Positions 8,925 to 61,186 of a stretch of 64,000 nucleotides of DNA are shown in pieces. The notes below the pieces were generated by a model. It did no database searches. It worked only from the letters and a program-made list of their open reading frames with translations, and was not told where the DNA came from. Location of the stretch: contig CM059432.1 in the NCBI GenBank assembly GCA_030390025.1, positions 74,650,001 to 74,714,000 of the forward strand. Reading direction: 5' to 3'. The stretch's first letter is position 1. Each line of letters begins with the position of its first letter. Source of the DNA: Squalus acanthias (Eukaryota). The position numbers and the translations under genes are program-made.

Positions 8925-8955
<31 letters not shown>

Positions 8956-9054
8956 GAGGACGATGATCATCAGCAGCACCAAGGCGGGAGGGCGGCCCAC
9001 AATGGTCAAACTGCAAGGGCCGTCCGTCAACGGCTAATAGCAAGCCGCTTCTAG
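7894..9054 (+). CDS. Harbinger DDE transposase (HARBI1-like family), 386 aa, single exon
   Basis: Uninterrupted ORF from ATG 7894; ALNFYATGSFQ HTH region, [51 protein letters not shown]; acidic C-tail. Confidence 0.95.
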
Positions 9055-9348
9055 GGCCCCTGCCATTGCTACCAACATTAATCAACCCAGCACGCAACCC
9101 CTAAGCCGGCCAAGGCACCAATAATTCCAACCACCAGCCATGTATATTTTGAATACAGAAACTTATTTATTTTACAAACTCTGTGTGTGTCAATTCCTCA
9201 TGACAAACTCATAGAAATAAACACAAAAAAACAGTCAATAACATAACTGGTTCTCACAACCTGGAGATAATGTCCAAAACACTAAACAAAAGTTGGACCA
9301 TGAACCTCGACCTTTAATAAAAAAATGACCAGCATTTTGTCACACCTC

Positions 9349-18908: not shown

Positions 18909-21900
18909 ACTGAGTGCAGTTTGAACAGAGTGCTGAGAAGAGGAGAGGAGAGGAAAGGTCTCTCTCTGTGCCTAGGAGAAGAAGACAGAGCCACGAAGGA
19001 CAGAGTGGAGACCCTTTCCACCTCCACCACGCCTGTTGCTACTACAACTATTACTGCTGAGGTGCCAGGAGAGAGGAGAGGAGAGAGAGGAGAGACCTAC
19101 GTCAACTGGGGGAGGTGAGGTCGGGGATTAATCCAATCCCGCTCGGCTGCAGGGAGGCCAGCCTCCGGCACGTCTTCTCCTTCCGGCGCCAGCTATTTAT
19201 CCAGCTGGTGCGGGAGGAGGACACAGAGGGCGCGTTTGTCGTCCAACACGAGGGGACTGCCTACCGCTTCTGGATGTCGGACGGTGTGCGGTGCCACGCC
19301 TGCAAGGAGGTGGGGCACATAAGAAGGAACTGCCCCACCTCCAAGGCCGCCAAAACATGAGTCACCTCTCCAACATTTCCGGCGGGGTGGCTATCTTGCT
19401 GGCCCCGCATTTTCAGCCGGAGATCTTGGGGGTCAAGGAGCATGTGCCGGGCCGCTTGCTCCAGGTTACTGTTCGCCTGGGGGGCGTGCCACTCCATTTA
19501 GTGAACGTGTACACCCCCCAGGCCGGTGCGCAGCAAGTGCGCTTCTTCAAAGAAGTGTCCGCTCTTCTGGGCACCGTCAACGTCGGCGAGTGCGTCATCC
19601 TCGGGGGGGATTTTAATTGTACCCTTGAGGCGAGGGACCGTTCCGGTCTCCCGCGAAGCCTGGCGGCGACAGTGAAGTTGAGGGACCTGGTCGGGTCCCT
19701 CGACTTGGTGGACATCTGGCGGAATCTCCATCCCGACTCCAGCACCTTCACTTGGGTGGGGTCTGGAGGAGGAAGGTCCAGAATCGACCACCTTTATATT
19801 TCCCGGGTGTACGTCTCCTGCGTTCCGGCGGCTTCCATGCGGCCGGTGCCGTGCACGGACCACCACCTGGTGTGGGCGGAGCTCGCTCCGTTGCGCGCGC
19901 CGGGGGAATCCGCGTACTGGCATTTTAACAACCTACTGCTGGAGGATGAGCGGTTCCGGGATTCGTTTCGTCGGTTCTGGGCCGACTGGCGAAGGAAGCT
20001 GGGGGGCTTCCCCTCCTTGAGGCTATGGTGGGACGTGGGCAAGGCTCACGTCCATTTCTTCTGTCACGAGTACGCGAGGGGGTTGACCAAGAGGCGGGAG
20101 GCCTGGGTCGGGCGGTTGGAGAAAGAAGTGCTCGACCTGGAGTCCCGTCTCGGTCAAGTCGTCGAAGACCCGGCCCTGCGGAAGGTGTACGAAGAGAAGA
20201 AGGGCGCGCTCAAGGACCTGCAGCTCGTCGGGTCCCGAGACGCGTACGTGAGGTCGCAGATCCAGTTCCTCCGGGAACTGGACCGCGGCTCCCCCTTCTT
20301 CTACTCGCTGGAAAAAGGACGGGGGGTCCGTAAGCAGCTCTTGGGGCTGCTGGCCGACGACGAGGGAATCAGCGCGGAGACCCGGGCCTATTACGGGGCT
20401 CTGTTCTCTCCGGATCCGTCCAGCGAAGATGCGCGCAGAGATTTGTGGGAGGACCTGCCGAAGGTCGGCCCGGAGGTCGCCGAGAAATTGGAAGCTCCGC
20501 TAAGCCTGGCGGAGCTGACCGGCGCCCTGTGCCAGCTCTCGAGGGGAAAGTCCCCGGGGCTGGACGGGCTGACTGTGGAGTTCCACAGGGCGTTCTGGGA
20601 CGTCTTGGGGGGCGACTATACGCGGGACCTGGGGGAAAGTCTGGCGACCGGGTAGATGCCCCTCTCTTGGCGCAGGGTGGTCATCGTCCTGCTGCCCAAG
20701 AGGGGTGATCTCCACCTCTTAAAAAACTGGCACCCGGTCTCTCTCCTCAGCACGGACTATAAAATTTTTGCCAGGGCTATGTCTGCCCGCCTTGGCACCG
20801 TGCTGGCCCACATGATCCACCCCGACCAGTCCTACACGGTCCCGGGCCGGACCATCCATGACAACATCCATCTGGTCCGGGACCTGGTCCACCTTTCCCA
20901 GAGGGCTGGTCTGTCGGTCGCCTTCCACTCCCTGGATCAGGAGAAGGCGTTCGACAGGGTGGATCACGAGTATCTTTTCGGAACTCTGCGCGCATTCGGG
21001 TTCGGGACGCATTTCGTCGCCCGGATCCGACTTCTGTACGCCGCCGCGGAGTGTCTGATTAAAGTTAACTGGTCTTTGACGGCGCCCCTTCGCTTCGGGA
21101 AGGGGGTACGTCAGGGATGCCCCATATCCGGTCAGTTATACACCGTTTGCGTGGAGCCTTTCCTGCGCCTCTTGCGGAAGAGGTTGACGGGACTGGCTCT
21201 GCAAGGGCCGGGCGTGGAGGTCGTCCTCTTGGCTTACGCCGATGACGTGCTCCTCATGGTTACGGATCCCATCGACTTGCGGAGGATGCGAGAATGCCAG
21301 CAGATTTACTCGGACGCATCCTCCGCCAGGATCAACTGGGAGAAATGTTCTGGACTCCTGGTGGGCCAATGGTGGGTGGACCCCCTGCCGGAGGAGTTCA
21401 GGCCCTTGGAGCACAACGCACCTCCTCTACTTGGGAGTCTACCTCGGCCCTGCTGAGGACACCTGGCCGGCGAACTGGCAAGAGCTGGAGGCCAAATTCA
21501 CCGCTCGCCTAGGACGCTGGACGGGGTTGCTCCGAGTGTTGTCCTACAGGGGTCGAGCGCTGGTCATAAACCAGCTGGTGGCCGCCATGTTGTGGTACCG
21601 GTTGGTCACTTTGATCCCTCCCCCTGCGTTTGTCGCCAAGATACAGAAGATGCTCATCGACTTCTTCTGGGACAAAAGGAAGCACTGGGTCTCTGCCGCG
21701 GTTCTGTGTCTCCCGCTTAGGGAGGGCGGTCAGGCGCTGGTGTGCATTCGCACCCAGGCGGCGACTTTCCGTCTTCAGACGCTGCAGAGGTACCTTTACG
21801 TCGAGAATCCTCCCAGATGGTGTGCGCTGGTGACGTATTTCTTCCGCCAGATGCACGGCCTCAACTACGACACGCAGCTCCTGTTTGTGGAATTGGGCCG

Positions 21901-23110
21901 CACGCGTGCCTACCTGTGGGAGCTGCCTGTCTTCTACCAGGAACTGCTATGGGTCTGGAACCAGGTCGCCTCCAGGCGGAGTTCTCCCCCGTCAGGAGCC
22001 GCTGCTCAGGAATCCGCACCTCCACGTCCGACGGATCGGGTGGCTGGTGGAGGGCAGGGCTGTGCCTGGCAAGGTGACCAGAGTCAGGGACCTGCTCGAT
22101 GGCAGAGGAGCGGGCTGGATGGCGCCGGAGGAGTTGGCGCGGCGCCTCTCCTGGGTCGATGTCTGGTGCGCGACCAAAGCCATCGAGTCGCTAAAAGTGG
22201 CACTGGGCCCGGACTCCACTAGGTGTATCGAGGAGGCTGAAGCACGTGTGGCGATCCCGTCCGAACTGACCTCCGTTCGGACGGAATTCCTCATCGGCGC
22301 GCGGCCCCGAAACCCCTCTCGGGAACCGGCGCCTCACAACTTGAGCCGTCTCGGGGAAATGCCCTCTGTGCCCTTCAGTTCTGCACGGAGGGGTTTCCTG
22401 TACGGGCTGCTGCTGCACACTTTCCAGTTTGTCATCTTCGCCTGCCGTCCGGACACGCCTTGGCGTGCCATCTTGCCGTCCGGCGGAGGCGAAGGTCCCC
22501 AATGGAGGGCTCTCTACGCGGGAGTCCTCCCCTTTTCTATTGGGGACCTGGCCTGGAGGGTGTTGCACGGAGCAGTCCCGTGCAATCAGTTTTTAAGTAG
22601 GTTCACGGACTCCCAGGCCGCCTGTCTTTTTTGCGGCCTCGAGGAGTCCGTGTTCCACGTGTACGCACAATGTGAGAGGTTGCAGCCCCTCTTTGAATAT
22701 TTGAAGGGGCTGCTCCTCGCTTTTTGGTTGCACTTCAGTCCCACGCTCCTGATCTATGGTCACCCGGTGCGGAGGGGAGAGGGCAGGTTGGAGGACCTCC
22801 TCGTAGGACTGCTCCTGGGCCTGGCCAAAGTGGCCATTAACAGGTCCAGGCAGCGGGCGGTCGAGGGGGTCGTTCGGCCCAATTGCCTGCCTCTCTTCCA
22901 TGGCTATGTTCGCGCCCGGGTGGCCCTGGAGATGGAGCACGCGGTGTCCACCGGCACGCTTGAAGCCTTCCGAGACCGGTGGGTACCGCAGGAACTGGAG
23001 TGCATCGTCTCCCCGGACAATGTTATTTTAGTTTAATGAGATAAGTTTCATTTGAAGTTTTGTTAATTTACAGTCGTTTTATGTTGACTCAAAAAGAGTT
23101 ACAAAAGAGT
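18909..23110 (+). mobile_element. Tx1-clade (L1 group) non-LTR retrotransposon, internally deleted
   Basis: ORF1 remnant with CCHC knuckle CHACKEVGHIRRNC joined to ORF2; short T-rich 3'UTR ending AAAAAGAGTTACAAAAGAGT. Confidence 0.9.
19357..23036 (+). pseudogene. Tx1-type ORF2 (APE + RT + C-terminal zinc finger); one stop (20653) and frameshifts near 21410 and 22000
   Basis: GGVAILL, GGDFN, SRID, TDH, WHFNNLLL, KSPGLDGL, DQEKAFDRV, GVRQGCPISG, YADD, CLFCGLEESVFHVYAQC. Confidence 0.92.
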
Positions 23111-33292: not shown

Positions 33293-34554
33293 CTAAGCAA
33301 ATCTGGCCAAGATGAGTGCGTTCCTTGCATCCTGGGCAGCAATGTTCTCGCGTACTGCTGCCGCTGGTTGATGGGCCTCTGCAAGATGTTTGTTTTCGCT
33401 CTCCTCCTCCTCCTCCTCCTCCTCCTCATCTGAGGAGGCTATGTGACGAGCCACTTGGTCCTCAGGAATCTGCAAGCCACGACGCTGTGCCATGTTGTGA
33501 AGTGCACAGCAAACCACGACGATTCTGGAGACCCTGGCTGCTGAGTACTGCAGGGCTCCACCTGATCTATCCAGGCATCTGAAGCGCATCTTCAGCAAAC
33601 CGATGGTTTGCTCAATTATGGCTCTGGTGGAAATGTGGCTGGAGTTGTAGCTCTCCTCAGCTTCGTTGGATGGGCTCCTCAACGGCGACATTAGCCACGT
33701 TTTCAGGGGATAGCCCTTGTCTCCAAGTAGCCATCCGTTAAGTTGGTCTGGCGGACTGAATAGCGGAGGCACACTAGACTGGTGCTGTATGAAGGAGTCA
33801 TGGCAACTGCCAGGGTACTTGGCACAAACATGCAAAATTTCCTTCTTGTGGTCACACACCAGCTGCATGTTGAGGGAGTGGAAGCCCTTGCGGTTGACAA
33901 AAATACCTGGATTGCGATGGGGTGCCTTAAGGGCCACGTGTGCAGTCAACGATGCCCTGCACCCTTGGAAAGCCTGCCAGATTAGCTAATCCAACCGCAC
34001 GCGCCGTAAGACTTGCTTGATCCTTGGTGAAATGGATGTGATTGTGCGCGATGGCAAAGAAGGCAAAGGTTACCTGCGTGATGCAAGTGTGTGCGGCCCC
34101 CTGGGAGATGCCGCTGATGTCTGCTGCTGATCCCTGGAATGAGCCTGAGGCAAAAAAGTTGAGTGCGGTGGTGACTTTGATGGCCACTGGTAAGGGTTGT
34201 CCACCTGGTCTTCTGGGCTCCAGGTCTTGTTGCAGCATTGTGCAGATGCCACCCACTACCTCTCGAAAGTCGGAGCCGCCTTTGGCACTGCTGCTCAGAC
34301 ATGTTAAGGTAGCTGACCCTGTGTCTGTAGACCCTGTTTGGGGGGTATCTCCTGCGCCGACGGGCTTCCATGTGCTGGCCCCTTCTGGCCTGTGCAGCTT
34401 CAGGTGGGTGAACAGCAGCTTGGCGCTCCTGTTGTTGCTGCTGCTGTTGGTGCTGCTGCTGTTGGTGCTGCTGTTGTTCATGGTTCTGCTGGTGCCGCGG
34501 CTGGTCTTCGTCCTCATCTGATGTCCAGAAGGGAAGGAAATAAATGGCTCCCAT
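33293..34554 (-). pseudogene. H3 DDE transposase with two frameshifts (near 34262 and 33940); N-terminal polyQ, C-terminal polyE
   Basis: [70 protein letters not shown]. Confidence 0.92.
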
Positions 34555-35229
34555 GCTTCTGGTATATGCCTCAGTTGAGGAAGCGCTCAGTCAAGGTGGC
34601 GAGAGGGGTTTCCCAGGAGGTCACACTGGAGATGGGTGTCAGGCTCCAAACTTCCACAGCTGTGGTTATGCCTTCTAAAAGTTCCCCCAGACCTGAGACA
34701 GCAAAGTCCTGCCACCTGCAAATGATGGCTGATCAAATCTCCTAATTAATGGTTGCGCTGCAGCTGAAAGTCAGCAATCCAATTGTGCTCCCGCCAGGTT
34801 TCACTGTCATGTTTCAGAACAGGCGTGCTTCACATGGGAAAAGGGTTAAAATCACAAAGGCTTATCAAAATGGCATTATAGAGGCAATTTAGTGCTTGTT
34901 AAGGGCCTTAACGGCCTATCCCGCCTCTTGGAGGCGGGACGGAGATGGGACCAGTAGACAAGATTTAATGAAAATTGCTTGGAGGTGGGATGGAGGCGGG
35001 GTTGGGCCCGCCCGCCAGTTTTTGCAATTTTAACCATCCACACGCCTCCAATCCCGCCTCAACGGCGCGATGAAATTCGAGCCCTATGACTCTGAGACAT
35101 CCACTTTCAGCATGGTGGAAGGACCAGTGCAATTCAGCTTGTGATGTGTCAGCCATCTTGTTGTTCTAGACATCCAAGTCCAATGCTGCACACTTATTGC
35201 TCATCAATAAGTGCTTAATTCAGATGCTC

Positions 35230-36879: not shown

Positions 36880-39800
36880 ACGACGGCATAGTGGTAATAT
36901 CACTGGGTTAGTAATTCAGACAGACCTGGACTAATGATCCAGAGACGTGAGTTCAAATCCCACCACGACAGCTGGGGAATTTAAATTCAGTTAATTAAAT
37001 AAAAATCTGGAATAAAAAGCTAGTATCAGTAATGGTAACCATGAAACTATCGGATTGTCGTAAAAACCCATCTGGTTCACTAATGTCATTTTGGGAAGGA
37101 AATCTGCTGTCCTTACCTGGTCTGGCCTATATGTGACTCCAGACCCACAGCAATGTGGTTGACTCTTAACTGCCCTCTGAAATGGCCTAGCAAGTCACTC
37201 AGTTGTAACTAACTGCTACGAAACAAAATAATAAGAATGAAACCGGACAGACCACTCGGCACTGGCAACGGCACACCCAGCCCAGTCAACCCTGCAAAGT
37301 CCTCCTCACCAACATCTGGGGACTTGTGCCAAAATTGGGAGAGCTGTCCCACAGACTAGTCAAGCAACCGCCTGATATAGTCATACTCACAGAATCATAC
37401 CTTTCAGCCAATGTCCCGAACTCCTCCATCACCATCCCTGGGTATGTCCTGTCCCAGCGGCAGGACAGACCCACCAGGGGTGGCCCTGGAAGTCCTCAAC
37501 ATTGACTCCGGACCCCCTGAAGTCTCATGGCTTCAGGTCAAGCAGGGGCAAGGAAACCTCCTGCTGATTACCACCTACCACCCTCCCTCAGCTGATGAAT
37601 CAGTAATCCTCCATGTTGAAGAAGCACTGAGAGCAGCAAGGGCCACAGAATGTACTTTGGGTGTGGGACTTCAATTTCCATCACCAAGAATGGCTTGGTA
37701 GCACCACTACTGACCGAGCCAGGTGGTGAGTGAACCAACACGAGGGGAAAAACCTACTTGACCTCGTCCTCACCAATCTACCTGTCGCAGATGCATCTGT
37801 CCATGACAGCATTGGCAGCAGTGACCACCGCACAGTCATTGTGGAGACGAAGTCCTGTCTTCACACTGAGAACACACTCCATCATGTTGTGTGGCACTAC
37901 CACCGTGCTAAATGGGATAGATTCAGAACAGATCTAGCAGCTCAAAACTGGGCCTCCATGAGGCGCTGTGGGCCATCAGCAGCAGCAGAATTGTATTCCA
38001 CCTCAATCTGTAACCTCATGGCCCAGCATATCCCTCACTCTACCATTACCACCAACCCTGGTTCAACAACGAGTGTACAGAAGCAGCACCAGGCTTACAT
38101 AAAAATGAGGTGCCAACCTGGGGAAGCATGCTAAAAAGTGGAAGCAGCATGCTATAGACAGGGCTAAGCGATCCCACAATCAACGGATCAGATCAAAGCT
38201 CTGCAGTCCTGCCACATCCAGTCGTGAATAGTGGTGGACCATTAAACAACTAACGGGAGGCGGAGGCTCCAAGAATATCCCCATCCTCAATGATGGTGGA
38301 GCCCAGCATGTGAGTGCAAAGGTCAAGGCTGAAGCGTTTGCAACCATCTTCAGCCAGAAGTGCCGAGTGGATGATCCCGAGGTCCCCACCATCACAGAAG
38401 CCAGTCTTCAGCCAATTCGATTCACTCCACATGATATCAAGAAACGGCTGAGCGTACTGGATACAGCAAAGGCTATGGGCCTCGACAACATCCCGGCTAT
38501 CATGCTGCAGAACTAGCCGCGCCTCTAGCCAAGCTGTTCCAGTACAGCTACAACACTGGCATCTATCCGACAATGTGGAAAACTGCCCAGGTATGTCCTG
38601 TCCACAAAAAGCAGGACAAATCCAACCTGGCCAATTACCGCTCCATCAGTCTACTCTCAATCATCAGCAAAGTAATGGAAGGTGTCAGCGACAGTGCTAT
38701 CAAGCGGCATTTACTCACCAATAACCTGCTCACTGATGCCCAGTTTGGGTTCCGCCAAGACCACTCAGCTCCCGACCTTATTACAGCCTTGGTCCAAACA
38801 TGGACAAAGGAGCTGAATTCCAGAGGTGAGGTGAGAGTGACTGCCCTTGACATCAAGGCAGCATTTGACCGAGTCTGGCATCAAGGAGCCCTAGTAAAAC
38901 TGAAGTCAGGGGGAAAACACTCCACTGGCTGGAGTCATACCTAGCACAAAGTAAGATGGTTGTGGTGGTTGAAGGTCAATCATCACAGCCCCAGGACAAC
39001 GCTGCAGGAGTTCCTCAGGGCAGTGTCCTAGGCCCAACCATCTTCAGCTGCTTCATCAATGACCTTCCTTCCAACATAAAGTCAGAAATGGGGATGTTCG
39101 CTGATGACTGCACAGTGTTCAGCGCCATTCACAACTCCACAGATAATGAAGCATTCCATGCCCGCATGCAACAAGACCTGGACGACGTTCAGGCTTGGGC
39201 TGACAAGTGGCAGGTAACATTCGCGCCACAGAAGTGCCAGGCAATGACTATCTCCAACAAGCGAGAGTCTAACCACCTCCCCTTGACATTCAATGGCATT
39301 ACCATCACCGAATCCCCCACTATCAACATCCTGGGGTGTCACCATTAACCAGAAACTTAACTGGACCAGCCACATAAAGACTGTGGCAACAAGAGCAGGT
39401 CAGAGGCTAGGTATTCTGCGGCGAGTGTCTCACCTCCTGACTCCCCAAAGCCTTTCCACCATCTACAAGGCACAAGTAAGGAGTGTGATGAAATACTCTC
39501 CACTTGCCTGGATGAGTGCAGTTCCAACAACACTCAAGAAGCTCGACACCATCCAGGACAAAGCAGCCCGCTTGATTGGCACCCCATGCACCATCTTAAA
39601 CATTCACTCCCTCCACCACCGGCGTACCGTGGCTGCAGTGTGTACCATCTACAAGATGCACTGCAGCAACTTGCCAAGGCTTCTTCGGCAGCACCTCCCA
39701 AACCCGCGACCTCTTCCACCTAGAAGGAAAAGGACAGCAGGCGCATGGGAACACCACCACCTCCAAGTTCCCCTCCAAGTCACACACCACCCTGACTTAG

Positions 39801-40002
39801 AAATATATCGCCGATCCTTCATCGTCGCTGGGTCAAAATCCTGGAACTCCCTACCTAACAGCACTGTGGGAGTACCATCACCACACAGACTGCAGCGGTT
39901 CAAGAAGGCAGCTCACCACCACCTTCTCAAGAGCAATTAGGGATGGGCAATAAATGCTGGCATTGCCAGCGATGCCCAGATCCTATAAATGAATAAAAAA
40001 AA
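36880..40002 (+). mobile_element. ORF1-less CR1-like LINE with a tRNA-derived (SINE-like) head
   Basis: A box CGGCATAGTGG (36884-36894), B box GAGTTCAAATCC (36949-36960), then one APE-RT region and an A-rich tail. Confidence 0.88.
37290..39940 (+). pseudogene. APE + RT region of the tRNA-headed LINE, frameshifted, with small deletions
   Basis: [78 protein letters not shown]. Confidence 0.9.
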
Positions 40003-40682
40003 GTTTCCTCTTAGTTTTGAGTCTCATTAGAATTCCGTACTCTGAAACATCAATGGTATGTGTGCCTCAAAACAGAAAATCATTGGCCACATTATCCAAA
40101 ATTGTGTCTGCCCACCTAGCACAATGAGATTTGAAGTATGTGCAGACTAGGTAATGTTTTAATTTTTTATGCACAGAGGATTGTTAGGTCATTGAGTGCC
40201 GTACCAGAAACATCGAATAATGAACTGCCCCCTTCCCAGCTATCAACTTTAGTTTAATGAGAACTATAGTCTAGCTATAAACACAAGTAAGGTGTTGGGG
40301 AAAAGCTTGAATCATAACAGTCACCAGCTCCACTGAAGCAACCAGCAGCAGATACAAATTCTGCAGGACAATCATAGGGAGCTTGAGAAAGATGTACAGG
40401 GTCATGCACAGAGCACAAAGGATGAAAGGATATCAGTGGTGTGAGCTGATTAGTCTTCTCCAGGCAGAAGATTCAGCAGACTGAGTTCCCCTCCTGTGTT
40501 GTAAGGGGTCTGCTTTCCAACAGAGGATACTGGAGTACATGGTCCACTTGGTCACTTGCCTCTGTACATACAGCACAGGAAGTAGGTATGGTTGTTCGTA
40601 CCAATGATTCTCTGCATTGAGTTAGTGACAACCCAGAGGCACATGCAGTTGAGACCTCAGTAGATTATAGATTTAAAGCTAT

Positions 40683-41063
40683 GCTGACACTCCAGTACAG
40701 TGCTGAGGGAGTGCTGCACTGTTGGCGGTGCCATCTTTCGGATGAGACGTTAAACCGAGGCCCCATCTTCTCTCTCAGGTGGACGTAAAAGATCCCATGG
40801 CACTATTTCGAAGAAGAGCAGAGGAGTTATCCCCAGTGTACTGGCCAATATTTATCCCTCAACCAACATAACAAAAACAGATTATCTGGTCATTATCACA
40901 TTGCTGTTTGTGGGACCTTGCTGTGCGCAAATTGGCTGCCGCGTTTCCCACATTACAACAGTGACTACACTTCAAAAAGTACTTCATTGGCTGTAAAGCA
41001 CTTTGAGACGTCCGGTGGTCGTGAAAGGCGCTATATAAATGCAAGTCTTTCCTTTCTTTCTTT
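40683..41063 (+). mobile_element. Deu-domain SINE (SacSINE1/AmnSINE1-like), 5' truncated, L2-type tail
   Basis: GGATGAGACGTTAAACCGAGG..AAAGATCCCATGGCACTATT..GGCGCTATATAAATGCAAG(TCTT)n; inverted second copy at 45134-45569. Confidence 0.8.
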
Positions 41064-42104
41064 TATACATCTGTCATACTTTCATAGTACAGAAAATAAA
41101 ATGTAAATTGTCCGGTCATAAGCCTAATAGAATATGTGCAGTTCTCTCCACAAATACACAGGTAAAGTGAATAAATAATTGTAAATGTGTCCCGTAGGAA
41201 ACAGTGTCCAATTGTAGAACTCAATGGAAGAACTCGGCAACAAAACCCTTATACAGTCATCCTCCTACCTCCAGTGGCTGGTCTGCTGCTTGTAGTTACC
41301 CACTGGCTTGAGATTCAACAGTGCATATGCAGGAGTCATCACTACCCATTGGTTGGGTAGAATGTGAGGAGTGGCCAATTGTTGAATATCTCAATGGTCT
41401 GTATTGCAAGGGCTTCATGCCTGGAGTGTGGGCTGGACTTGACATGGCCTGTGATGAGCTGCCATGTGTCTTTGGAAGTGAATTTGGGCCGCCATGAGTT
41501 GGCTGCACGGGGCTGAAGCTGTGGGTTAGCCGAGTAAGGGGATCTCATCTATGGTTGCAGGGCTAGGACTAATAGGCCTGATGTTGCTGGGACATGGTGC
41601 AAGCTACATCTCAGCATAAGAACTGAACATCCCACAGATGCAAAGGTTTGTAGAGTCTGGCTACACTCCTGGGCCGATAACAATTTTTTTCTCCAACGTA
41701 CGATCCCCTCCTCCCGAGGGAAATTAACTGGCCCATATTCAGTAACTTCTCACAATGACACAGGTGAGGCTGGAAACAAAACAATATAGGGGAATCACAG
41801 GCACAAACACACATCCTATTGGTGTGCAGCACCATGTGTTGTCACTCCAAAATGCTGAACCAGATGGTGTACAACCTTGTATCCTCTTTGACTCACAGCT
41901 GAGCTTCAAATATATAATCATGAAAACCTCGAATTCCAACCCTCCTGCATTACTACAGAAACCCTTATCCACAATTTTGTTACATCTAGACTCAATTTCT
42001 GCAATGTATTCTCAGCAACCTCCCAAGCTCCACCTTCACAAGTTCAACTCATTCAAATCCCTGCCACCCACATCCTGTTCTACTTGCCCATCATCTCCAT
42101 CCTT

Positions 42105-47896: not shown

Positions 47897-50800
47897 AAAT
47901 AATGTAAATATATCCTAAATCCTTACCAGAGAGCTGGTTTATAAGAAAATGATTAAACCTGGCCCCTAAAACAGTTAATTAAGTTGTTCTAAATGAATTT
48001 TACAATGTTTATCACGTTACAAAGGGAAAGATGTAAAATGTCAAATGACAGGTGTGTTATTATATCTGATTTGTTTGCTTAGTTCTGGTCCTGCACCATT
48101 TGACTGGCAGCTGCTGAAGACCAACGTAATTGAATGCATAGCACTGTATTTACCATGCGTTAATACATGTTATCTTGGCGAACACAATATCTCGCATTTA
48201 ACAACAATGAAGTGTTCCAGGATAACACTTCATAAATCTCCTGATAATTAGTCTTGCGATAAATCCATTTGTAGCGAGAGCAGTAATAAATGGCTAGTGT
48301 TCCAACTCATTTATCAGATCATCCTCTCACCTTTCGTTAGCAGTTAGAATGTTATTAATAATTGAAGGTAATTATTCTCCAAGATAATCCATAGTTAAAA
48401 AATAAATGAAACATTTGTAACTACATGGTATTGTTTTATATAACAAAATGTTATTTTATTACTGTTATACGAATTAACATGGGCCCCAATTAAATCTCTG
48501 TATGAATGGTTCTTATTTTGTAACAGTGCCAAATAATCTTTCCTTGCTGCTGTATTACAAAAAAGGAATAAGTACAGTACTCGCACTTCAGTTGTGTTAA
48601 AGTCTGATAACCATAGATAAAAGTTTGGAAAAGGTACTCTCCACTATAAAAATCACATTTATTTGCGAGTTCTAAGCATCCGTCTAATTGCGTTGATCCC
48701 GCTGATGTGTACATCCATGGAAATATCCTGATTGTAAGAAAGTCAGCCCATTGGAATAAATCAACGTGATCAATCGGCCAGGAAAGAACATTTCTGTTCA
48801 TTGTTAAACTCCTCATAACGCGAGTATGAGTGGGAGCAGCCAGACTGCAATCCACTGGGACTTGTCACTTACAGGCAGAACAAGCCGAGACCAAACGGAC
48901 TTCAGTACAAGGGGTCAGTACAAGGGATTAGTACAAGGGAGCAGGACGAGGGATGAATACAAGGGATCAATCTGAGGGATTAATAGAAGGGATAAATACC
49001 AGGGATCAGGACAAGGGATCAGGACAAGTGAACAATACAAGTGTTCAATACCAGGGATCAGGAAAAGGGATCAGGACAAGGGATCAACACAATTGATCAA
49101 TACAAAGGACTAATAGAATGGATCGGTACAAGGGATCAATAAAAGGGATCAATACAAGGGACCAAATGAAGGGATCAATAGAAGGGATCAATAAAAGGGA
49201 TCAGGACAAGGGTTCAGTACATGTGGATCAATGCAAGGAAACAATACAACGGATAAATAGAAGGGATCAATAGAAGGGATCAGTAGAAGGGATCAATACA
49301 AGGGATCAATAGAAGGGATCAATACAAGGGATCAGGACAGGGGATCAATACAAGGGATCAATAGTAGGAACCAATACAAGGGATCAATACAAAAGATTAA
49401 TAGAAGGGATCGATACAAAAGATTAATAGAAGGGATCGATACAAAAGATTAATAGAAGGGATGAGTAAAAGGGATCAATACAATTTATCAATACAAGGGA
49501 TCAATACAAGGGATGAGTACAAGGAATTAATAGAAGAGATCAATACAAACGATCAACACAAGTGATCAATACAAGGGATCAGGAAAAGGGATCAACACAA
49601 TTGATCAATACACGGGATCAATACAAGGGATCTGGGCAGGGGGTCAATACAATGGATCAATAGCAGGAATCAAAACAAGGGATCAATACAAAGGACTAAT
49701 AGAAGGGATCAATACAAGGGATCAATACAAGGGGATCATTAAAGGAATCAATACAACAGATCAATAGAAGCGATTTAGAAGGGATCAATAGAAGCGATCA
49801 CTACAAGGGATCAATATAAGGGATCAATAAAAGGGATCAATAGAAGGGATCAATACAAGGGATCAATAATAGGAATCAATACAAGGGATCAGTACAAGCG
49901 ATCCATACATGGCATCAATACAAGGGATCAGGAAATGGCTTCAATATAAGGGATCAATAGAAGAGATCAATACAAGGGATCAATACAAGGGAACAATACA
50001 AGGGATTAGTACAAGGGATCAATAGAAGGAATCAATACAAAGGCTCAAAACAAGAGATCAATACAAGGGTTCAGTACAAGGGATCAATAAAAGGGATCAA
50101 TACAAGAGACAAAATTAAGGGATCAATAAATGGCATCAATAAAATGAATTAATACAAGGGATCAATACAAGGAATCAATACAATGGAGAAAGAGAAGTGA
50201 TCAAGAGAAGGGATCAATAGAAGGGATCAATAGAAGGGATCAACACAAGGGATCACTACAAGGGATCAATAGAAGGGACTAATACCAGGGATTAATAGAA
50301 GGGATCTATACAAGGGATCAATACAAGGGATCAATGGAAGGGAGCAATAGAAGGGATCAATACAAGGGATCAATACAAGGGATCAATACAAGGAATCAAT
50401 ACAAAGGATCAATAGAAGCGATCAATACAAGGGATCTATACAAGTGATCAATAGAAGGGATCAATACAAGGGATCAATACAAGGGATCAATACAAGGGAT
50501 CAATAGAAGTGATCAGTTTAAGGGATCAGTACAAGGGATCAATAGAAGGGATAAATACAAGGGAGCAATACAAGGGATCAATACAAGGGAACAATACAAG
50601 GGATCAGTACAAGGGATCAATACAAGGGATCAGTACAAGTGATCGATACAAGGAATCAATACAACGGATCAATAGAAGGGATCAATAGAAGGGATCAATA
50701 GAAGGGATCAATGCAAGGGATCAACAGAAGGGATCAATACAAGGGATCAATACAAGGGATCAACAGAAGGGATCAATAAAAGTGATCAATACAAGGGATT

Positions 50801-51585
50801 AATAGAAGGGACTAACATAAGGGATTAATAGAAGATATCTATACAAGGGATCAATACAAGGGATCAATACAAGGGATCTATACAAGGGATCAATACAAGG
50901 GATCAATAAAAGGAATCAATAAAATGGATCAATACATGGAATCAATACAACAGATCAATAGAAGTGATCAATACAAGGGAGCAATACAAGGGACCAATAG
51001 AAGGGACTAATAGAAGGGATCAATACAAGTGTTTAATACAAGTGATCAAGAGAAGGGATCAATACAAGTGATCAGGACAGGGGATCAGGACAAGTGATCA
51101 GGACAAGTGATCAGGACAAGGGATCAATACAAGGGATGAGTACAAGGGATCAATACAATGGATCAGTACAAGGGATCAGTACAAGTGATCAATGCAAGGG
51201 ATCAATAGAAGTGATCAATAGAAGGGATCAATACAAGGGATCAATAAAAGGGATCAATAGAAGGGATCAATACAAGGGATCAATACAAGAGACTAATAGA
51301 AGGGATCAATACAAGGGATCAATACAAGGGATCATTACTTGCAATCAATACAAGGGATCAGTACATGCGATCCATACATGGCATCAATACAAGGGATCAG
51401 GAAATGGCTTCAATATAAGGGATCAATAGAAGAGATCAATACAAGGGATCAATACAAGGGAACAATACAAGGGATTAGTACAAGGGATCAGCACAAGACA
51501 TCAATACAAGGGATCAATACAAGGGATCAATACAAGGGATCAATACAAGGGATCAATACAAAGGCTCAAAACAAGAGATCAATAC

Positions 51586-51677
51586 GGGGATAGGGTGGGA
51601 TATGTGTCGATGCAGGCTCGATGGGCCGAAATGGCCTCTACCTGCACTGTGGGAATTCTGTATGCTGTATTCTGTGT
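51586..51677 (+). mobile_element. 92-bp CR1/SINE 3' tail inserted in the satellite, copy 1
   Basis: GGCTCGATGGGCCGAAATGGCC stem-loop, (TTCTGTAT)-like tail, AATAC TSD; empty site visible near 50055. Confidence 0.85.
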
Positions 51678-54600
51678 AATACAAGGGTTCAGTACAAGGG
51701 ATCAATAAAAGGGATCAATACAAGAGACAAAATGAAGGGATCAATAAATGGCATCAATAAAATGAATTAATACAAGGGATCAATACAAGGAATCAATACA
51801 ATGGAGAAATAGAAGTGATCAAGAGAAGGGATCAATAGAAGGGATCAATACAACGGATCACTACAAGGGATCAATAGAAGGGACTAATACCAGGGGTTAA
51901 TAGAAGGGATCAGTACAAGGGATCAATACTAGGGATCAATGGAAGGGAGCAATAGAAGGGATCAATACAAGGGATCAATAAAATGGATCAGTATAAGTGG
52001 TCAATACAAGGGATCTATACAAGGAATCAATACAAGGAATCAACACAAAGGATCAATAGAAGCGATCATTTCAAGTGATCAGTACAAGGGATCAATACAA
52101 GGGATCTATACAAGTGATCAATAGAAGGGATCAATACAAGGAATCAACACAAAGGATCAATAGAAGCGATCATTTCAAGTGATCAGTACAAGGGATCAAT
52201 ACAAGGGATCTATACAAGTGATCAATAGAAGGGATCAATACAAGACAGAAATAGAAGGGATCAATACAAGGGATCTATACACGTGATCAATAGAAGGGAT
52301 CAATGCAAGGGATCAATACAAGGGATCAATACAAGGGTTGAATACAAGAGTCAATACAAGGGATCAATACAAGGGATCTGTACAAGGGGATCAATACAAG
52401 GAATCAATACAATGGATCAATAGATGGGATCAATGGAAGGGATCAATACAAGGGATCAATACAAGGGATCAATAATAGGAATCAATACAAGGGATCAATA
52501 CAAGGGATCAATACAAGGAATCAATAGAAGGGATCAATACAAGGAATCAATACAAGGCACAAATAGAAGGGATCAATACAAGGGATCTGTACAAGTGATC
52601 AATAGAAGGGATCAATACAAGACAGAAATAGAAGGGATCAATACAAGGGATCTATACAAGTGATCAATAGAAGTGATCAATGCAAGGGATCAATACAAGG
52701 GATCAATTCAAGGGTTGAATACAAGAGTCAATACAAGGGATCAATACAAGGGATCTGTACAAGGGGATCAATACAAGGAATCAATACAATGGATCAATAG
52801 ACGGGATCAATGGAAGGGATCAATACAAGGGATCAATACAAGGGATCAATAATAGGAATCAATACAAGGGATCAATACAAGGAATCAATAGAAGGGATCA
52901 ATACAAGGAATCAATACAAGGCACAAATAGAAGGGATCAATACAAGGGATCTGTACAAGGGGATCAATACAAGGAATCAATACAACAGATCAATAGAAGG
53001 GATCAAAAGAAAGGGATCAATAGAAGTGATCAATACAAGGGATCAATACAAGGGATCAATAGCAGGGATCAATACAAGGGATCAATACAAGGGATCAATA
53101 CAAGGAATCAATAGAAGGGATCAATATAAGGAATCAATACAAGGCACAAATAGAAGGGATCAATATAAATGATCAATAGAACAGATCAATACAAGGGATT
53201 AATAGAAGGGACCAATACAAGGGATCAGTACAAGGGGATCAATACAAGGAATCAATACAATGGATCAATAGAAGGGATCAATAGAAGGGATCAATAGAAG
53301 GGCTTAATACAAGGGATCAATACAAGGGACCAACAGAAGGGATCAATACAAGTGATCAGTACAAGGGATTAATAGAAGGGACTAATATAAGGGATTAATA
53401 GAAGGGATCAATACAAGGGATCAATAAAAGGAATCAATAAAATGGATCAATACATGGAATCAATACAAGTGATCAATAGAAGTGATCAGTTCAAGGGATC
53501 AGTACAAGGGATCAATACAAGGGATTAATAGAAGGGATCAATACAAGGGATCACTACAAAGGATCAGTACAAGGGATCAATAAAAGTGATCAATAGAAGG
53601 GATCAATACAAGGTATCAATACAAGTGACTAATAGAAGGGATCAATACAAGTGATCAATTGAATGGAGCAACAAAATGGATCAGTACAAGGGTTCAATAC
53701 AAGGGAGCAATAGAAGGGATCAATACAAGGGATCAATAGCAGGGATCAATACAAGGGATCACTACAAGGGATCAGTACAAGGGATCAATAAAAGGGTTCA
53801 ATAGAAGGGATCAATACAAGGGATCAATACAAGGGACTAATAGAAGGGACCAATACAAGTGATCAATTGAAGGGAGCAACAGAATGGATCAGTACAAAGG
53901 TTCAATACAAGTGATCAATAGAAGGGATCAATACAAGGGATCATTACTTGCTATCAATACAAGGGATCAGTACAAGCGATCCATACATAGCATCAATACA
54001 AGGGATCAGGAAATGGCTTCAATATAAGGGATCAATAGAAGAGATCAATAGAAGGAATCAATACAAAGGCTCAAGACAAGAGATCAATACAAGGATTCAG
54101 TACAAGGGATCAATAAAAGGGATCAATACAAGAGACAAAATGAAGGGATCAATAAATGGCATCAATAAAATGAATTAATACAAGGGATCAATACAAGGAA
54201 TCAATACAATGGAGAAATAGAAGTGATCAAGAGAAGGGATCAATAGACGGGATCAATAGAAGTGATCAATACAAGGGATCACTACAAGGGATCAATAGAA
54301 GGGTCTAATACCAGGGATTAATAGAAGGGATCTATACAAGGGATCAATAGAAGAGATCAATACAAGGGATCAATACAAGGGAACAATACAAGGGATTAGT
54401 ACAAGGGATCAATAGAAGGAATCCACACAAAGGCTCAAAACAAGAGATCAATACAAGGATTCAGTACAAGGGATCAATAAAAGGGATCAATACAAGAGAC
54501 AAAATGAAGGGATCAATAAATGGCATCAATAAAATGAATTAATACAAGGGATCAATACAAGGAATCAATACAATGGAGAAAGAGAAGTGATCAAGAGAAG

Positions 54601-57600
54601 GGATCAATAGAAGGGATCAATAGAAGGGATCAATACAAGGGATCACTACAAGGGATCAATAGAAGGACTAATACCAGGGATTAATAGAAGGGATCTATAC
54701 AAGGGATCAATACAAGGGATCAATGGAAGGGAGCAATAGAAGGGATCAATACAAGGGATCAATACAAGGGATCAATACAAGGAATCAATACAAAGGATCA
54801 ATAGAAGCGATCAATACAAGGGATCTATACAAGTGATCAATACAAGGGATCAATACAAGGGATCAATACAAGGGATCAATAGAAGTGATCAGTTCAAGGG
54901 ATCAGTAAAAGGGATCAATAGAAGGGATTAATACAAGGGAGCAATACAAGGGATCAATACAAGGGAACAATACAAGGGATCAGTACAAGGGATCAATACA
55001 AGGGATCAGTACAAGTGATCGATACAAGGAATCAATACAACGGATCAATAGAAGGGATCAATAGAAGCGATCAATAGAGGGGATCAATGCAAGGGATCAA
55101 CAGAAGGGATCAATACAAGGGATCAATACAAGGGATCAACAGAAGGGATCAATAAAAGTGATCAATACAAGGGATTAATAGAAGGGACTAACATAAGGGA
55201 TTAATAGAAGATATCTATACAAGGGATCAATACAAGGGATCAATACAAGGGATCAATAAAAGGAATCAATAAAATGGATCAATACATGGAATCAATACAA
55301 CAGATCAATAGAAGTGATCAATACAATGGAGAAATACAAGGGACTAATAGAAGTGACTAATAGAAGGGATCAATACAAGTGTTTAATACAAGTGATCAAG
55401 AGAAGGGATCAATACAAGGGATCAATAAAAGGGATCAATACAGGAGACAAAATTAAGGGATCAATAAATGGCATCAATAAAATGAATTAATACAAGGGAT
55501 CAATACAAGGAATCAATACAATGGAGAAAGAGAAGTGATCAAGAGAAGGGATCAATAGAAGGGATCAATAGAAGGGATCAATACAAGGGATCACTACAAG
55601 GGATCAATAGAAGGGACTAATACCAGGGATTAATAGAAGGGATCTATACAAGGGATCAATACAAGGGATCAATGGAAGGGAGCAATAGAAGGGATCAATA
55701 CAAGGAATCAATACAAAGGATCAATAGAAGCGATCAATACAAGGGATCTATACAAGTGATCAATAGAAGGGATCAATACAAGGGATCAATACAAGGGATC
55801 AATAGGAGTGATCAGTTCAAGGGATCAGTACAAGGGATCAATAGAAGGGATTAATACAAGGGAGCAATACAAGGGATCAATACAAGGGAACAATACAAGG
55901 GATCAGTACAAGGGATCAATACAAGGGATCAGTACAAGTGATCGATACAAGGAATCAATACAACGGATCAATAGAAGGGATCAATAGAAGGGATCAATAG
56001 AGGGGATCAATGCAAGGGATCAACAGAAGGGATCAATACAAGGGATCAATACAAGGGATCAACAGTAGAGATCAATAAAAGTGATCAATACAAGGGATTA
56101 ATAGAAGGGACTAACATAAGGGATTAATAGAAGATATCTATACAAGGGATCAATACAAGGGATCAATACAAGGGATCTATGCAAGGGATCAATACAAGGG
56201 ATCAATAAAAGGAATCAATAAAATGGATCAATACATGGAATCAATACAACAGATCCACAGAAGTGATCAATACAAGGGAGAAATACAAGGGACCAATAGA
56301 GGTGACTAATAGAAGGGATCAATACAAGTGTTTAATACAAGTGATCAAGAGAAGGGATCAATACAAGTGATCAGGACAGGGGATCAGGACAAGTGATCAG
56401 GACAAGGGATCAATACAAGGGATGAATACAAGGGATCAATACAATGGATCAGTACAAGGGTTCAATAGAAGGGAGCAATAGAAGGGATCAATACAAGGGA
56501 TCAATAGCAGGGATCAATACAAGGGATCACTACAAGGGATCAGTACAAGGGATCAATAAAAGGGATCAATAGAAGGGATCAATACAAGGGATCAATACAA
56601 GGGACTAATAGAAGGGATCAATACAAGTGATCAATTGAAGGGAGCAACAGAATGGATCAGTACAAGGGTTCAATACAAGTGATCAATAGAAGGGATCAAT
56701 ACAAGGGATCATTACTTGCTATCAATACAAGGGATCAGTACAAGCGATCCATACATAGCATCAATACAAGGGATCAGGAAATGGCTTCAATATAAGGGAT
56801 CAATAGAAGAGATCAATAGAAGGAATCAATACAAAGGCTCAAAACAAGAGATCAATACAAGGATTCAGTACAAGGGATCAATAAAAGGGATCAATACAAG
56901 AGACAAAATGAAGGGATCAATAAATGGCATCAATAAAATGAATTAATACAAGGGATCAATACAAGGAATCAATACAATGGAGAAAGAGAAGTGATCAAGA
57001 GAAGGGATCAATAGAAGGGATCAATAGAAGGGATCAATAGAAGGGATCAATACAAGGGATCACTACAAGGGATCAATAGAAGGGACTAATACCAGGGATT
57101 AATAGAAGGGATCTATACAAGGGATCAATACAAGGGATCAATGGAAGGGAGCAATAGAAGGGATCAATACAAGGGATCAATACAAGGGATCAATACAAGG
57201 AATCAATACAAAGGATCAATAGAAGCGATCAATACAAGGGATCTATACAAGTGATCAATAGAAGGGATCAATACAAGGGATCAATACAAGGGATCAATAG
57301 AAGTGATCAGTTCAAGGGATCAGTACAAGGGATCAATAGAAGGGATTAATACAAGGGAGCAATACAAGGGATCAATACAAGGGAACAATACAAGGGATCA
57401 GTACAAGGGATCAATACAAGGGATCAGTACAAGTGATCGATACAAGGAATCAATACAACGGATCAATAGAAGGGATCAATAGAAGGGATCAATAGAGGGG
57501 ATCAATGCAAGGGATCAACAGAAGGGATCAATACAAGGGATCAATACAAGGGATCAACAGTAGAGATCAATAAAAGTGATCAATACAAGGGATTAATAGA

Positions 57601-60600
57601 AGAGACTAACATAAGGGATTAATAGAAGATATCTATACAAGGGATCAATACAAGGGATCAATACAAGGGATCTATGCAAGGGATCAATACAAGGGATCAA
57701 TAAAAGGAATCAATAAAATGGATCAATACATGGAATCAATACAACAGATCCACAGAAGTGATCAATACAAGGGAGAAATACAAGGGACCAATAGAGGTGA
57801 CTAATAGAAGGGATCAATACAAGTGTTTAATACAAGTGATCAAGAGAAGGGATCAATACAAGTGATCAGGACAGGGGATCAGGACAAGTGATCAGGACAA
57901 GGGATCAATACAAGGGATGAATACAAGGGATCAATACAATGGATCAGTACAAGGGTTCAATACAAGGGAGCAATAGAAGGGATCAATACAAGGGATCAAT
58001 AGCAGGGATCAATACAAGGGATCACTACAAGGGATCAGTACAAGGGATCAATAAAAGGGATCAATAGAAGGGATCAATACAAGGGATCAATACAAGGGAC
58101 TAATAGAAGGGATCAATACAAGTGATCAATTGAAGGGAGCAACAGAATGGATCAGTACAAGGGTTCAATACAAGTGATCAATAGAAGGGATCAATACAAG
58201 GGATCATTACTTGCTATCAATACAAGGGATCAGTACAAGCGATCCATACATAGCATCAATACAAGGGATCAGGAAATGGCTTCAATATAAGGGATCAATA
58301 GAAGAGATCAATAGAAGGAATCAATACAAAGGCTCAAAACAAGAGATCAATACAAGGATTCAGTACAAGGGATCAATAAAAGGGATCAATACAAGAGACA
58401 AAATGAAGGGATCAATAAATGGCATCAATAAAATGAATTAATACAAGGGATCAATACAAGGAATCAATACAATGGAGAAAGAGAAGTGATCAAGAGAAGG
58501 GATCAATAGAAGGGATCAATAGAAGGGATCAATACAAGGGATCACTACAAGGGATCAATAGAAGGACTAATACCAGGGATTAATAGAAGGGATCTATACA
58601 AGGGATCAATACAAGGGATCAATGGAAGGGAGCAATAGAAGGGATCAATACAAGGGATCAATACAAGGGATCAATACAAGGAATCAATACAAAGGATCAA
58701 TAGAAGCGATCAATACAAGGGATCTATACAAGTGATCAATACAAGGGATCAATACAAGGGATCAATAGAAGTGATCAGTTCAAGGGATCAGTAAAAGGGA
58801 TCAATAGAAGGGATTAATACAAGGGAGCAATACAAGGGATCAATACAAGGGAACAATACAAGGGATCAGTACAAGGGATCAATACAAGGGATCAGTACAA
58901 GTGATCGATACAAGGAATCAATACAACGGATCAATAGAAGGGATCAATAGAAGCGATCAATAGAGGGGATCAATGCAAGGGATCAACAGAAGGGATCAAT
59001 ACAAGGGATCAATACAAGGGATCAACAGAAGGGATCAATAAAAGTGATCAATACAAGGGATTAATAGAAGGGACTAACATAAGGGATTAATAGAAGATAT
59101 CTATACAAGGGATCAATACAAGGGATCAATACAAGGGATCAATAAAAGGAATCAATAAAATGGATCAATACATGGAATCAATACAACAGATCAATAGAAG
59201 TGATCAATACAATGGAGAAATACAAGGGACTAATAGAAGTGACTAATAGAAGGGATCAATACAAGTGTTTAATACAAGTGATCAAGAGAAGGGATCAATA
59301 CAAGTGATCAGGACAGGGGATCAGGACAAGTGATCAGGACAAGGGATCAATACAAGGGATGAATACAAGGGATCAATACAATGGATCAGTACAAGGGTTC
59401 AATACAAGGGAGCAATAGAAGGGCTCAATAGAAGGGATCAATAGAAGGGATCAATACAAGGGATCACTACAAGGGATCAGTACAAGGGATCAATAAAAGG
59501 GATCAATAGAAGGGATCAATACAAGGGATCAATACAAGGGACTAATAGAAGGGATCAATACAAGTGATCAATTGAAGGGAGCAACAGAATGGATCAGTAC
59601 AAGGGTTCAATACAAGTGATCAATAGAAGGGATCAATACAAGGGATCATTACTTGCTATCAATACAAGGGATCAGTACAAGCGATCCATACATAGCATCA
59701 ATACAAGGGATCAGGAAATGGCTTCAATATAAGGGATCAATAGAAGAGATCAATAGAAGGAATCAATACAAAGGCTCAAAACAAGAGATCAATACAAGGA
59801 TTCAGTACAAGGGATCAATAAAAGGGATCAATACAAGAGACAAAATGAAGGGATCAATAAATGGCATCAATAAAATGAATTAATACAAGGGATCAATACA
59901 AGGAATCAATGCAATGGAGAAAGAGAAGTGATCAAGAGAAGGGATCAATAGAAGGGATCAATAGAAGGGATCAATACAAGGGATCACTACAAGGGATCAA
60001 TAGAAGGGACTAATACCAGGGATTAATAGAAGGGATCTATACAAGGGATCAATACAAGGGATCAATGGAAGGGAGCAATAGAAGGGATCAATACAAGGGA
60101 TCAATACAAGGGATCAATACAAGGAATCAATACAAAGGATCAATAGAAGCGATCAATACAAGGGATCTATACAAGTGATCAATAGAAGGGATCAATAGAA
60201 GGGATCAATAGAGGGGATCAATGCAAGGGATCAACAGAAGGGATCAATACAAGGGATCAATACAAGGGATCAACAGAAGGGATCAATAAAAGTGATCAAT
60301 ACAAGGGATTAATAGAAGGGACTAACATAAGGGATTAATAGAAGATATCTATACAAGGGATCAATACAAGGGATCAATACAAGGGATCTATACAAGGGAT
60401 CAATACAAGGGATCAATAAAAGGAATCAATAAAATGGATCAATACATGGAATCAATACAACAGATCAATAGAAGTGATCAATACAAGGGAGAAATACAAG
60501 GGACCAATAGAAGTGACTAATAGAAGGGATCAATACAAGTGCTTAATACAAGTGATCAAGAGAAGGGATCAATACAAGTGATCAGGACAGGGGATCAGGA

Positions 60601-61094
60601 CAAGTGATCAGGACAAGGGATCAATACAAGGGATGAATACAAGGGATCAATACAATGGATCAGTACAAGGGATCAGTACAAGTGATCAATGCAAGGGATC
60701 AATAGAAGTGATCAATAGAAGGGATCAATACAAGGGATCAATAAAAGGGATCAATAGAAGGGATCAATACAAGGGATCAATACAAGAGACTAATAGAAGG
60801 GATCAATACAAGGGATCAATACAAGGGATCAATACAAGGGATCATTACTTGCAATCAATACAGGGATCAGTACAAGCAATCCATACATGGCATCAATACA
60901 AGGGATCAGGAAATAGCTTCAATATAAGGGATCAATAGAAGAGATCAATACAAGGGATCAATACAAGGGAACAATACAAGGGATTAGTACAAGGGATCAG
61001 CACAAGATATCAATACAAGGGATCAATACAAGGGATCAATACAAGGGATCAATAGAAGGAATCAATACAAAGGCTCAAAACAAGAGATCAATAT

Positions 61095-61186
61095 GGGGAT
61101 AGGGTGGGATATGTGTCGGTGCAGGCTCGATGGGCCGAAATGGCCTCTACCTGCACTGTGGGAAATCTGTATGCTGTATTCTGTGT
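61095..61186 (+). mobile_element. Same 92-bp insertion, copy 2 (amplified with the array)
   Basis: Same flanks and length; about three substitutions including the TSD. Confidence 0.85.

Follow-up and report, generated by a model that had tools for sequence, protein, structure and literature searches.

The Zenon copy in the window

The window, a stretch of 64,000 nucleotides (nt) from Squalus acanthias (contig CM059432.1), holds at positions 36880-40002 a decayed copy of Zenon, a long interspersed element (LINE). The original prediction, made from the sequence of the window, had suggested an autonomous retrotransposon transcribed by RNA polymerase III (Pol III) and selected against Pol III terminators. 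The copy begins with a tRNA-derived head and a leader, which measures ~335 nt rather than the ~400 bp first claimed. The apurinic endonuclease (APE) and reverse transcriptase (RT) domains follow directly, without ORF1, as had been noted: the Pfam match to RVT_1 is strong, that to Exo_endo_phos_2 is weak (E 0.014), the pieces lie in shifting frames, and nothing like ORF1 precedes them. The features are as follows, in window coordinates:

36880..36975, + strand: head of tRNA origin in which an anticodon-arm-like hairpin is duplicated; the window copy has a changed 5' end (Rfam tRNA match, E 0.077; sharp 5' start common to family copies; consensuses of five sharks and rays)
36884..36894, + strand: A-box position, imperfect here, with C replacing the first T (61 of 88 distinct heads show an A-box pattern)
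36951..36959, + strand: B box, intact (67 of 88 distinct heads show a B-box pattern)
36976..37176, + strand: leader, AT-rich with two AATAAA, then a core of ~120 nt strongly conserved between a ray and the sharks; the leader also holds several short upstream ATGs
37089..37092, + strand: sole TTTT, private to the window copy
37177..37202, + strand: bulged hairpin with a 7-nt anticodon-like loop, CTAGCAA, at 37187-37193; a predicted pairing joins the loop AGC to the GCT at 37215-37217 (local fold, scan, loop variants)
37206..37208, + strand: in-frame TAA immediately 5' of the open reading frame (ORF) (78 of 83 distinct copies)
37215..39940, + strand: the one APE-RT frame, which in the family runs for ~970 codons and has no in-frame ATG until about codon 282; broken here
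37237..37239, + strand: out-of-frame ATG starting a short overlapping frame (ATG in 67 of 83 copies; ATA, the form of an older subfamily, in 8 of 83)
39941..39994, + strand: short 3' untranslated region (UTR), which includes an AATAAA (39949-39954); the short copies described below have as their tail the terminal 60-135 nt of the element
39995..40002, + strand: A8 tail, without a clear target-site duplication

Relative to the family majority sequence, the window copy carries ~4% substitutions, 10 internal deletions (193 nt) and 10 frameshifting indels, and it departs from the family head over the 5'-most ~9 nt; it is therefore a dead, broken member of the family. Its T content is 20.4%. It contains one run of four or more T (T4) and 16 runs of four or more A, the tail included, in agreement with the one and roughly 15 counted by eye earlier. 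The majority has CCTTTAGG at 37089-37092, so that the TTTT of the window copy is a private A-to-T change. The first TTTT 3' of the element was located at 40015-40018, where it had been reported; it lies within the flanking DNA of a neutral copy and provides no evidence of selection. The neighbouring CR1 sequences in the window, described earlier as rich in T4 runs, have 17, 12 and 3 of them in 3156, 2371 and 1401 nt.

Head and reading frame as a single unit

In the host genome (3.7 Gb), a query spanning the head/ORF junction gave 3511 candidates. The 40 that were scored all span the junction; having been selected by the junction query, they provide no independent test. With the head alone as the query, 28 of 30 loci (the window locus is one of the 30) continue into the ORF and the other two are heads joined directly to the tail, which rules out that the head is a short interspersed element (SINE) lying next to the ORF by chance. 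Loci reached from the ORF extend to the first 13 nt of the head in 9 of 39 cases with an ORF DNA query and in 8 of 30 with a distant protein query. A further 53 ORF-selected rows have a main match that starts later, and their breakpoints are scattered, without a common alternative 5' UTR. An all-against-all comparison of the 400 nt upstream of these 53 rows gave 9 pairs, one being the head itself and another lying behind repeat tails that resemble each other, with unlike breakpoints (804 and 718); no second 5' UTR was defined by the 9 pairs. Head and ORF are one unit, and the tRNA head is the only 5' end of the family.

The family majority is ~3.3 kb long with one open frame of 969-972 codons, and full-length copies mostly differ from it by 2-4%. 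No intact copy was present among the fetched loci: the longest open piece has 593 amino acids (L031-L099), and the best protein matches all contain stops. Most full-length copies in a set chosen for likeness to the window copy (L031-L069) show several internal deletions of 10-40 nt despite ~3% substitutions.

The majority head starts with GGG and has a canonical A box at 9-19 and a B box at 74-82; the purine start and internal A and B boxes of a Pol III type 2 unit are thus present in the majority. Both boxes had been reported for the window copy, where the B box is intact and the A box is imperfect. Two tandem anticodon-arm-like hairpins at 36904-36943 stretch the spacing between the boxes to ~65 nt, the ray consensus being shorter there. 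ARAGORN with default settings found no tRNA in the window head, and relaxed settings were uninformative (224 calls in 110 sequences). By eye, a GGCAG after the B box (~36965-36973) is complementary to CTGCC in a leader loop (~37102-37110) in all five published consensuses, and a long-range pairing between the two is possible.

A tRNA-like head could also serve as a processing signal, with RNase P-type cleavage releasing the RNA from a longer host transcript and the leader then acting as an IRES (internal ribosome entry site), a situation comparable to that of the hepatitis delta virus (HDV)-like ribozymes of R2 and L1Tc. The sharp 5' end would agree with this, and there is a precedent for LINE RNAs that are processed, lack a cap and have a 5' end resembling an IRES (PMC6765202). 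The head, however, has a duplicated arm and no clean cloverleaf fold, and the avoidance of T-clusters described below would be left unexplained; we regard processing of this kind as very improbable.

Identity and distribution

The SquAca_Zenon-1 consensus (Stuart et al. 2026, PMC13343379) agrees with our majority across the first ~340 nt in a by-eye comparison. Together with the length of ~3.3 kb, the APE-RT organization and the A-tail, which are also those of the published elasmobranch Zenon, this identifies the element as Zenon, of the CR1 group. Zenon as such is described as having a poly-A tail and lacking ORF1, and the absence of ORF1 here is therefore ordinary. The published consensuses were compared over their first 400 nt, for the best 32 of 41 supplement matches. 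Those of five species start with the same head and leader, namely four sharks (SquAca, CarCar, RhiTyp and ScyCan) and a ray (HypSab); among the matches listed, the shared head was not seen by eye in the first 400 nt of hagfish or coelacanth Zenon. In four sequencing runs, each from another organism, contigs cover the head, the junction and the ORF. The leader core is nearly invariant in four other organisms, with a handful of differences over ~110 nt in the 40 of 50 rows listed.

The words 'tRNA' and 'polymerase III' occur nowhere in the main text of PMC13343379, and in the available part of that account the head, the T avoidance, the AUG-less frame and the SINE derivatives were not found. Nor was a description of an autonomous Pol III-transcribed LINE, or of a tRNA head on shark Zenon, found in the literature searched, Repbase and Dfam entries and subscription journals being outside its scope. 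As far as this literature goes, the family is known and its anatomy is apparently unreported.

A search of the PDB matched solely the RTs of L1, R2 and group II introns, and no relatives were found in viral contigs. Searches of the genome for a diverged second family, on which T avoidance could be tested independently, gave only the same family and an old 3' fragment of it. This fragment (~80% identity; L241-L270) is part of an array of segmental duplications that occurs on several contigs.

Avoidance of T-clusters in the sense strand

The original prediction had allowed that a consensus might retain T4 runs or that low T content might account for their scarcity. T4 runs are absent from the majorities of both 27 and 36 copies. 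With 27 copies, the ORF would be expected to contain 2.9 under a mononucleotide null (P 0.054), 1.7 under a codon null (P 0.14) and 1.7 under a synonymous null (P 0.15); with 36 copies, 3.8 would be expected in the whole element (P 0.023), or 1.4 under a dinucleotide null (P 0.23). Low T content thus accounts for a large part of the bare T4 absence (P 0.05-0.15 when the ORF is shuffled, 0.23 for dinucleotides), and zero TTTT is by itself weak evidence (P 0.02-0.23, depending on the null). The observed/expected ratio of TT in the majority is 0.71 and T3 runs number 7 against 19.5 expected, while AA, CC and GG are not low. Majorities of shark CR1 elements show no T4 deficit, with 5, 7 and 4 runs in 1851, 1470 and 1391 nt.

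Since degenerate T-rich signals, too, stop human Pol III (PMC3141230), windows with four or more T in 5 nt were counted, with the majority of 5 copies from the ORF DNA query set as the reference. The ORF contains one such window, compared with 16.6 expected under the mononucleotide null (0 of 1000), 10.1 under the codon null (P 0.006), 9.4 under the synonymous null (P 0.004) and 7.7 under the dinucleotide null (P 0.018). Clusters of A, C and G are at expectation, and the depletion is therefore specific to T. At synonymous sites, T is used in 8% of cases before another T and in 16-43% before other bases.

These values were compared with those of relatives, drawn from 160 loci in metagenome and genome contigs, 86 of which have an ORF of at least 750 amino acids. 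The TT ratio in the 86 ORFs is 1.05 +/- 0.08 (minimum 0.80), compared with 0.71 in the shark element, and the observed/expected ratio of clusters is 1.24 +/- 0.25 (minimum 0.63), compared with 0.06. The sense strand of the shark element avoids T-clusters. Low T content does not account for this wider depletion. Phenylalanine, at 1.9%, is the lowest of 90, yet it does not stand apart from GC-rich relatives. Many bacterial and archaeal metagenome-assembled genomes among the loci L370-L449 carry intact ORFs of animal LINE type on short contigs, probably as host contamination.

Start of translation and leader structure

The APE-RT frame lacks a start codon in the usual place. No in-frame Met is encountered before codon 282-285, which falls in the linker that follows APE. 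Among the 86 relatives, 69 have one within their first 60 codons. Nine ATGs lie upstream of the shark ORF. With these upstream ATGs and no in-frame AUG, cap-dependent scanning is a poor fit. Of 84 decayed copies, 66 have the GCT codon at the beginning of the frame in register with APE. In the consensuses of CarCar, ScyCan, RhiTyp and HypSab, read by eye, the frame is maintained 3' of this GCT, where indels come in threes, and is broken on the 5' side, where RhiTyp lacks one base shortly before the codon. SquAca-1 as published is off by one base in an A-run where our own majority is in frame. The comparison of consensuses and copies shows the frame to be conserved from the GCT codon, with no AUG for ~280 codons. 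In-frame ATGs occur in 13 of 83 copies, of which indels account for 10 and CpG decay for 3. The out-of-frame ATG at 37237-37239 was considered as the true start, used through a frameshift, and was set aside because the older subfamily has ATA in its place.

In two relatives (P0008 and P0014) a basic N-terminal extension begins with M-A-T-K or A-T-K, similar to the A-T-K at the start of the shark frame. The likeness may reflect a lost AUG or be a chance effect of low complexity.

The missing AUG could also mean that the long form is non-autonomous, a chimera of a SINE head and a Zenon ORF that is truncated at its 5' end and has no AUG, mobilized by a partner without a head that has escaped notice; the lack of an intact copy among the fetched loci would be in line with this. 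Such a chimera should not be expected to have a majority frame open for ~970 codons, frame-preserving indels 3' of the GCT in five species (by eye) or T avoidance at synonymous sites, and no other 5' end was seen among the ORF-selected loci. The chimera is accordingly a reading to which we give little credence.

The bulged hairpin ends 12 nt 5' of the GCT, and the AGC of its CTAGCAA loop is able to pair with this codon. The second base of the loop varies (T, C or G) and the AGC is mostly retained. The hairpin is the minimum-energy local fold in two copies (L072 and L077), not in the window copy, and its z-score is not significant. Counts of the stem are circular, the search pattern itself having required it (127 of 195 leaders matched), and no compensatory change in the AGC/GCT pairing was seen among the copies compared. 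A loop/codon pseudoknot resembling that of factorless viral IRESs is a weakly supported model. The type 6 IRESs of the dicistrovirus intergenic region (PMC10275262, PMC12221177) have leaders of similar size and combine, as is proposed for Zenon, a non-AUG start with an adjacent pseudoknot, which mimics an anticodon loop paired to a codon. They differ in that the GCU of Zenon would be the codon paired with the loop, whereas in the viruses a codon of this kind is the first to be decoded; the Zenon pairing is moreover a candidate, and neither PKII nor PKIII was recognized. The origin of such IRESs is called unknown in the IRES literature (PMC12221177).

A precedent for cap-independent translation of LINEs, proposed to proceed through a structured 5' end, exists in R2 and L1Tc with their HDV-like ribozymes (reviewed in PMC6765202). 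The R2 and L1Tc RNAs are cut by the ribozyme from Pol I or Pol II co-transcripts, whereas no ribozyme was detected in Zenon with Rfam.

The 3' end and the short derivatives

A-runs are found at 114 family ends, with 1-10 T directly 5' of the A-tail. Four or more T occur here in 19 of the 114. The corresponding figures are 0 of 124 for an internal T/A boundary and 129 of 1786 for all runs of five or more A that the loci contain. When A length is regressed on T length, the slope is -0.19 and not significant. The T-run before the tail may be a relic of a terminator or a product of slippage. Target-site duplications were not above chance in 36 copies (mean 2.3 nt, null 2.1 nt).

The original prediction had proposed that SINEs might arise from the element by internal deletion, and short head-plus-tail copies do exist. 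Among all fetched loci of the genome, by searches that favoured junctions in this range, 62 distinct copies were found in which head positions 298-360 are joined to tail positions 3167-3246, with 51 junction types. Some junctions recur, one type in six copies, and many are single; a search with a head-tail junction motif gave 1 exact match. These derivatives are ~400-480 nt long and non-coding, and 19 of the 62 end before the GCT codon region. The full element, with 3.3 kb and a frame of ~970 codons, is itself no SINE. Joined head-tail forms are also present in contigs of two other organisms.

In lepidopteran Zenon, repeated internal deletion gives rise to the Persaeus SIDEs (PMC6740152), which resemble the shark copies in being independent deletions that retain the 5' UTR, the start of the ORF and the 3' end. 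Persaeus is described as having no tRNA homology and no Pol III promoter, whereas the shark derivatives inherit the tRNA head and therefore resemble ordinary SINEs. The arrangement of A/B-box head, body and LINE tail is that of tRNA and bipartite SINEs (PMC5786205), and the shark SINEs HE1 and SacSINE1 share the tRNA head, body and LINE tail (table in PMC3747384). In the standard model a LINE that has already undergone deletion and is non-coding acquires a tRNA head (Kojima 2018, PMC5786205), whereas in shark Zenon the head sits on the full coding element. The many junctions would favour the opposite order, deletion from a LINE that already had its head.

Probable transcription of the coding element by Pol III

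By the textbook division, LINEs are coding Pol II transcripts and SINEs are non-coding Pol III transcripts. The combination of a tRNA-type promoter, almost no T-clusters and no normal start codon makes Pol III transcription likely, and we favour, with some reserve, the reading that the elasmobranch Zenon is an autonomous LINE, transcribed in full length by Pol III and translated without a cap or an AUG. In the elasmobranch lineage, an ancestral Zenon would have exchanged a Pol II 5' UTR for a tRNA or SINE head, after which selection would have purged canonical and degenerate Pol III terminators across 3.3 kb. The transcript would end at a T-run at or just past the 3' end. The conserved leader would recruit ribosomes internally, possibly through a pseudoknot between the anticodon-like loop and the codon that sets the frame. 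Internal deletions would repeatedly yield ready-made SINEs, since the promoter and the tail recognized by the RT share one RNA.

The principal alternative is that Pol II makes the coding RNA, from a cryptic promoter in the head or leader or by read-through from the host, and that the head is a captured 5' module used by Pol III only in the short derivatives; the poverty in T would then reflect the composition of the lineage or avoidance of U-rich splicing and cleavage signals. LINEs and their bipartite derivatives are regarded as Pol II transcripts (PMC5786205), and phenylalanine is low in many relatives too (2.0-2.3%). On the other hand, the depletion is specific to T, C clusters being at expectation. 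A Pol II transcript would also carry two AATAAA within its first 140 nt and nine ATGs before a frame without an in-frame AUG, and retention of the A and B boxes would have to be explained. Transcription of the long form by Pol II seems unlikely, though it is the alternative to be taken most seriously.

Several observations weigh against transcription by Pol III, and some of them favour Pol II. The match of the head to RF00005 is weak (20.8 bits, below the 29-bit cut-off). The bare absence of T4 is not significant under the codon, synonymous and dinucleotide nulls (P 0.14, 0.15 and 0.23), and the cluster statistic was a post hoc choice, made after the T4 result. The relatives are 24-37% identical and mostly richer in T, with a single match in composition (L371, T 20%). 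This relative, which has an AUG start and whose 5' end is missing, is likewise poor in T-runs, with one T4 run against 3.7 expected, a TT ratio of 0.80 and 11 clusters against 17.5. Of nine short shark ORFs used as controls, three also have a mild cluster deficit (with some of the nulls, P 0.01-0.05). At the 3' end, no terminator is fixed, T4 runs before the A-tail being found in just 19 of 114 ends and perhaps due to slippage. The AATAAA 40 nt 5' of the A-tail is equally compatible with Pol II; Pol III transcripts of SINEs can be polyadenylated via AAUAAA as well.

The proposed internal initiation faces objections of its own. The candidate pseudoknot pairing comprises only 3-4 bp. The scan for hairpin and pairing, designed after the candidate had been seen, gave 2 matches in the real element, the second inside the ORF, and 0.19 per shuffled element. 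No Rfam IRES matched the leader (E<=10 or 5), and the leader folds no better than shuffled sequences (z -0.5 to 0.3, pseudoknot-free folding).

The interpretation offered by the original prediction is thus partly supported, and of the three outcomes that it had set against itself, a head adjacent by chance, a consensus with T4 runs and an effect of low T content, none holds in full. The most extensive version of the Pol III reading would be a 3.3-kb coding Pol III LINE of sharks and rays, purged of terminators, operating outside the Pol II/cap system, starting at a non-AUG codon by a tRNA-mimicking, dicistrovirus-like pseudoknot that a vertebrate nuclear genome would encode, and giving rise to SINEs by deletion; taken as a whole it is doubtful.

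If Pol III does transcribe the long form, the division between LINEs and SINEs would no longer hold, sharks and rays having retained a coding LINE that is driven by a tRNA promoter and whose transcript would be a natural Pol III mRNA of 3 kb. Deletion from a headed LINE would constitute a second route of SINE birth beside capture of a head by a tail, and a factorless element of IRES type, if present outside viruses, would be relevant to the origin of such IRESs.

Other elements in and around the window

LINE ORF2 pieces at 19132-23033, which we take to be Tx1-like, lie beside CR1 leaders; used as a T4 control, they contain 10 runs. A 13-bp tandem satellite of ~1160 copies with 79% matches occupies 48902-64000 and extends beyond the end of the window. 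It is A-rich and has no T4 run on the + strand. The ORFs at 33296-34590 (- strand) and ~8200-10400 presumably represent a Harbinger/PIF transposase and its partner, and a second, unrelated SINE at ~40750-41100 is, we assume, of the SacSINE1/DeuSINE kind. At one of the fetched loci (L110, 399-495), a near-perfect palindrome of ~95 nt matched several miRNA models below cut-off and is probably a small inverted-repeat element.
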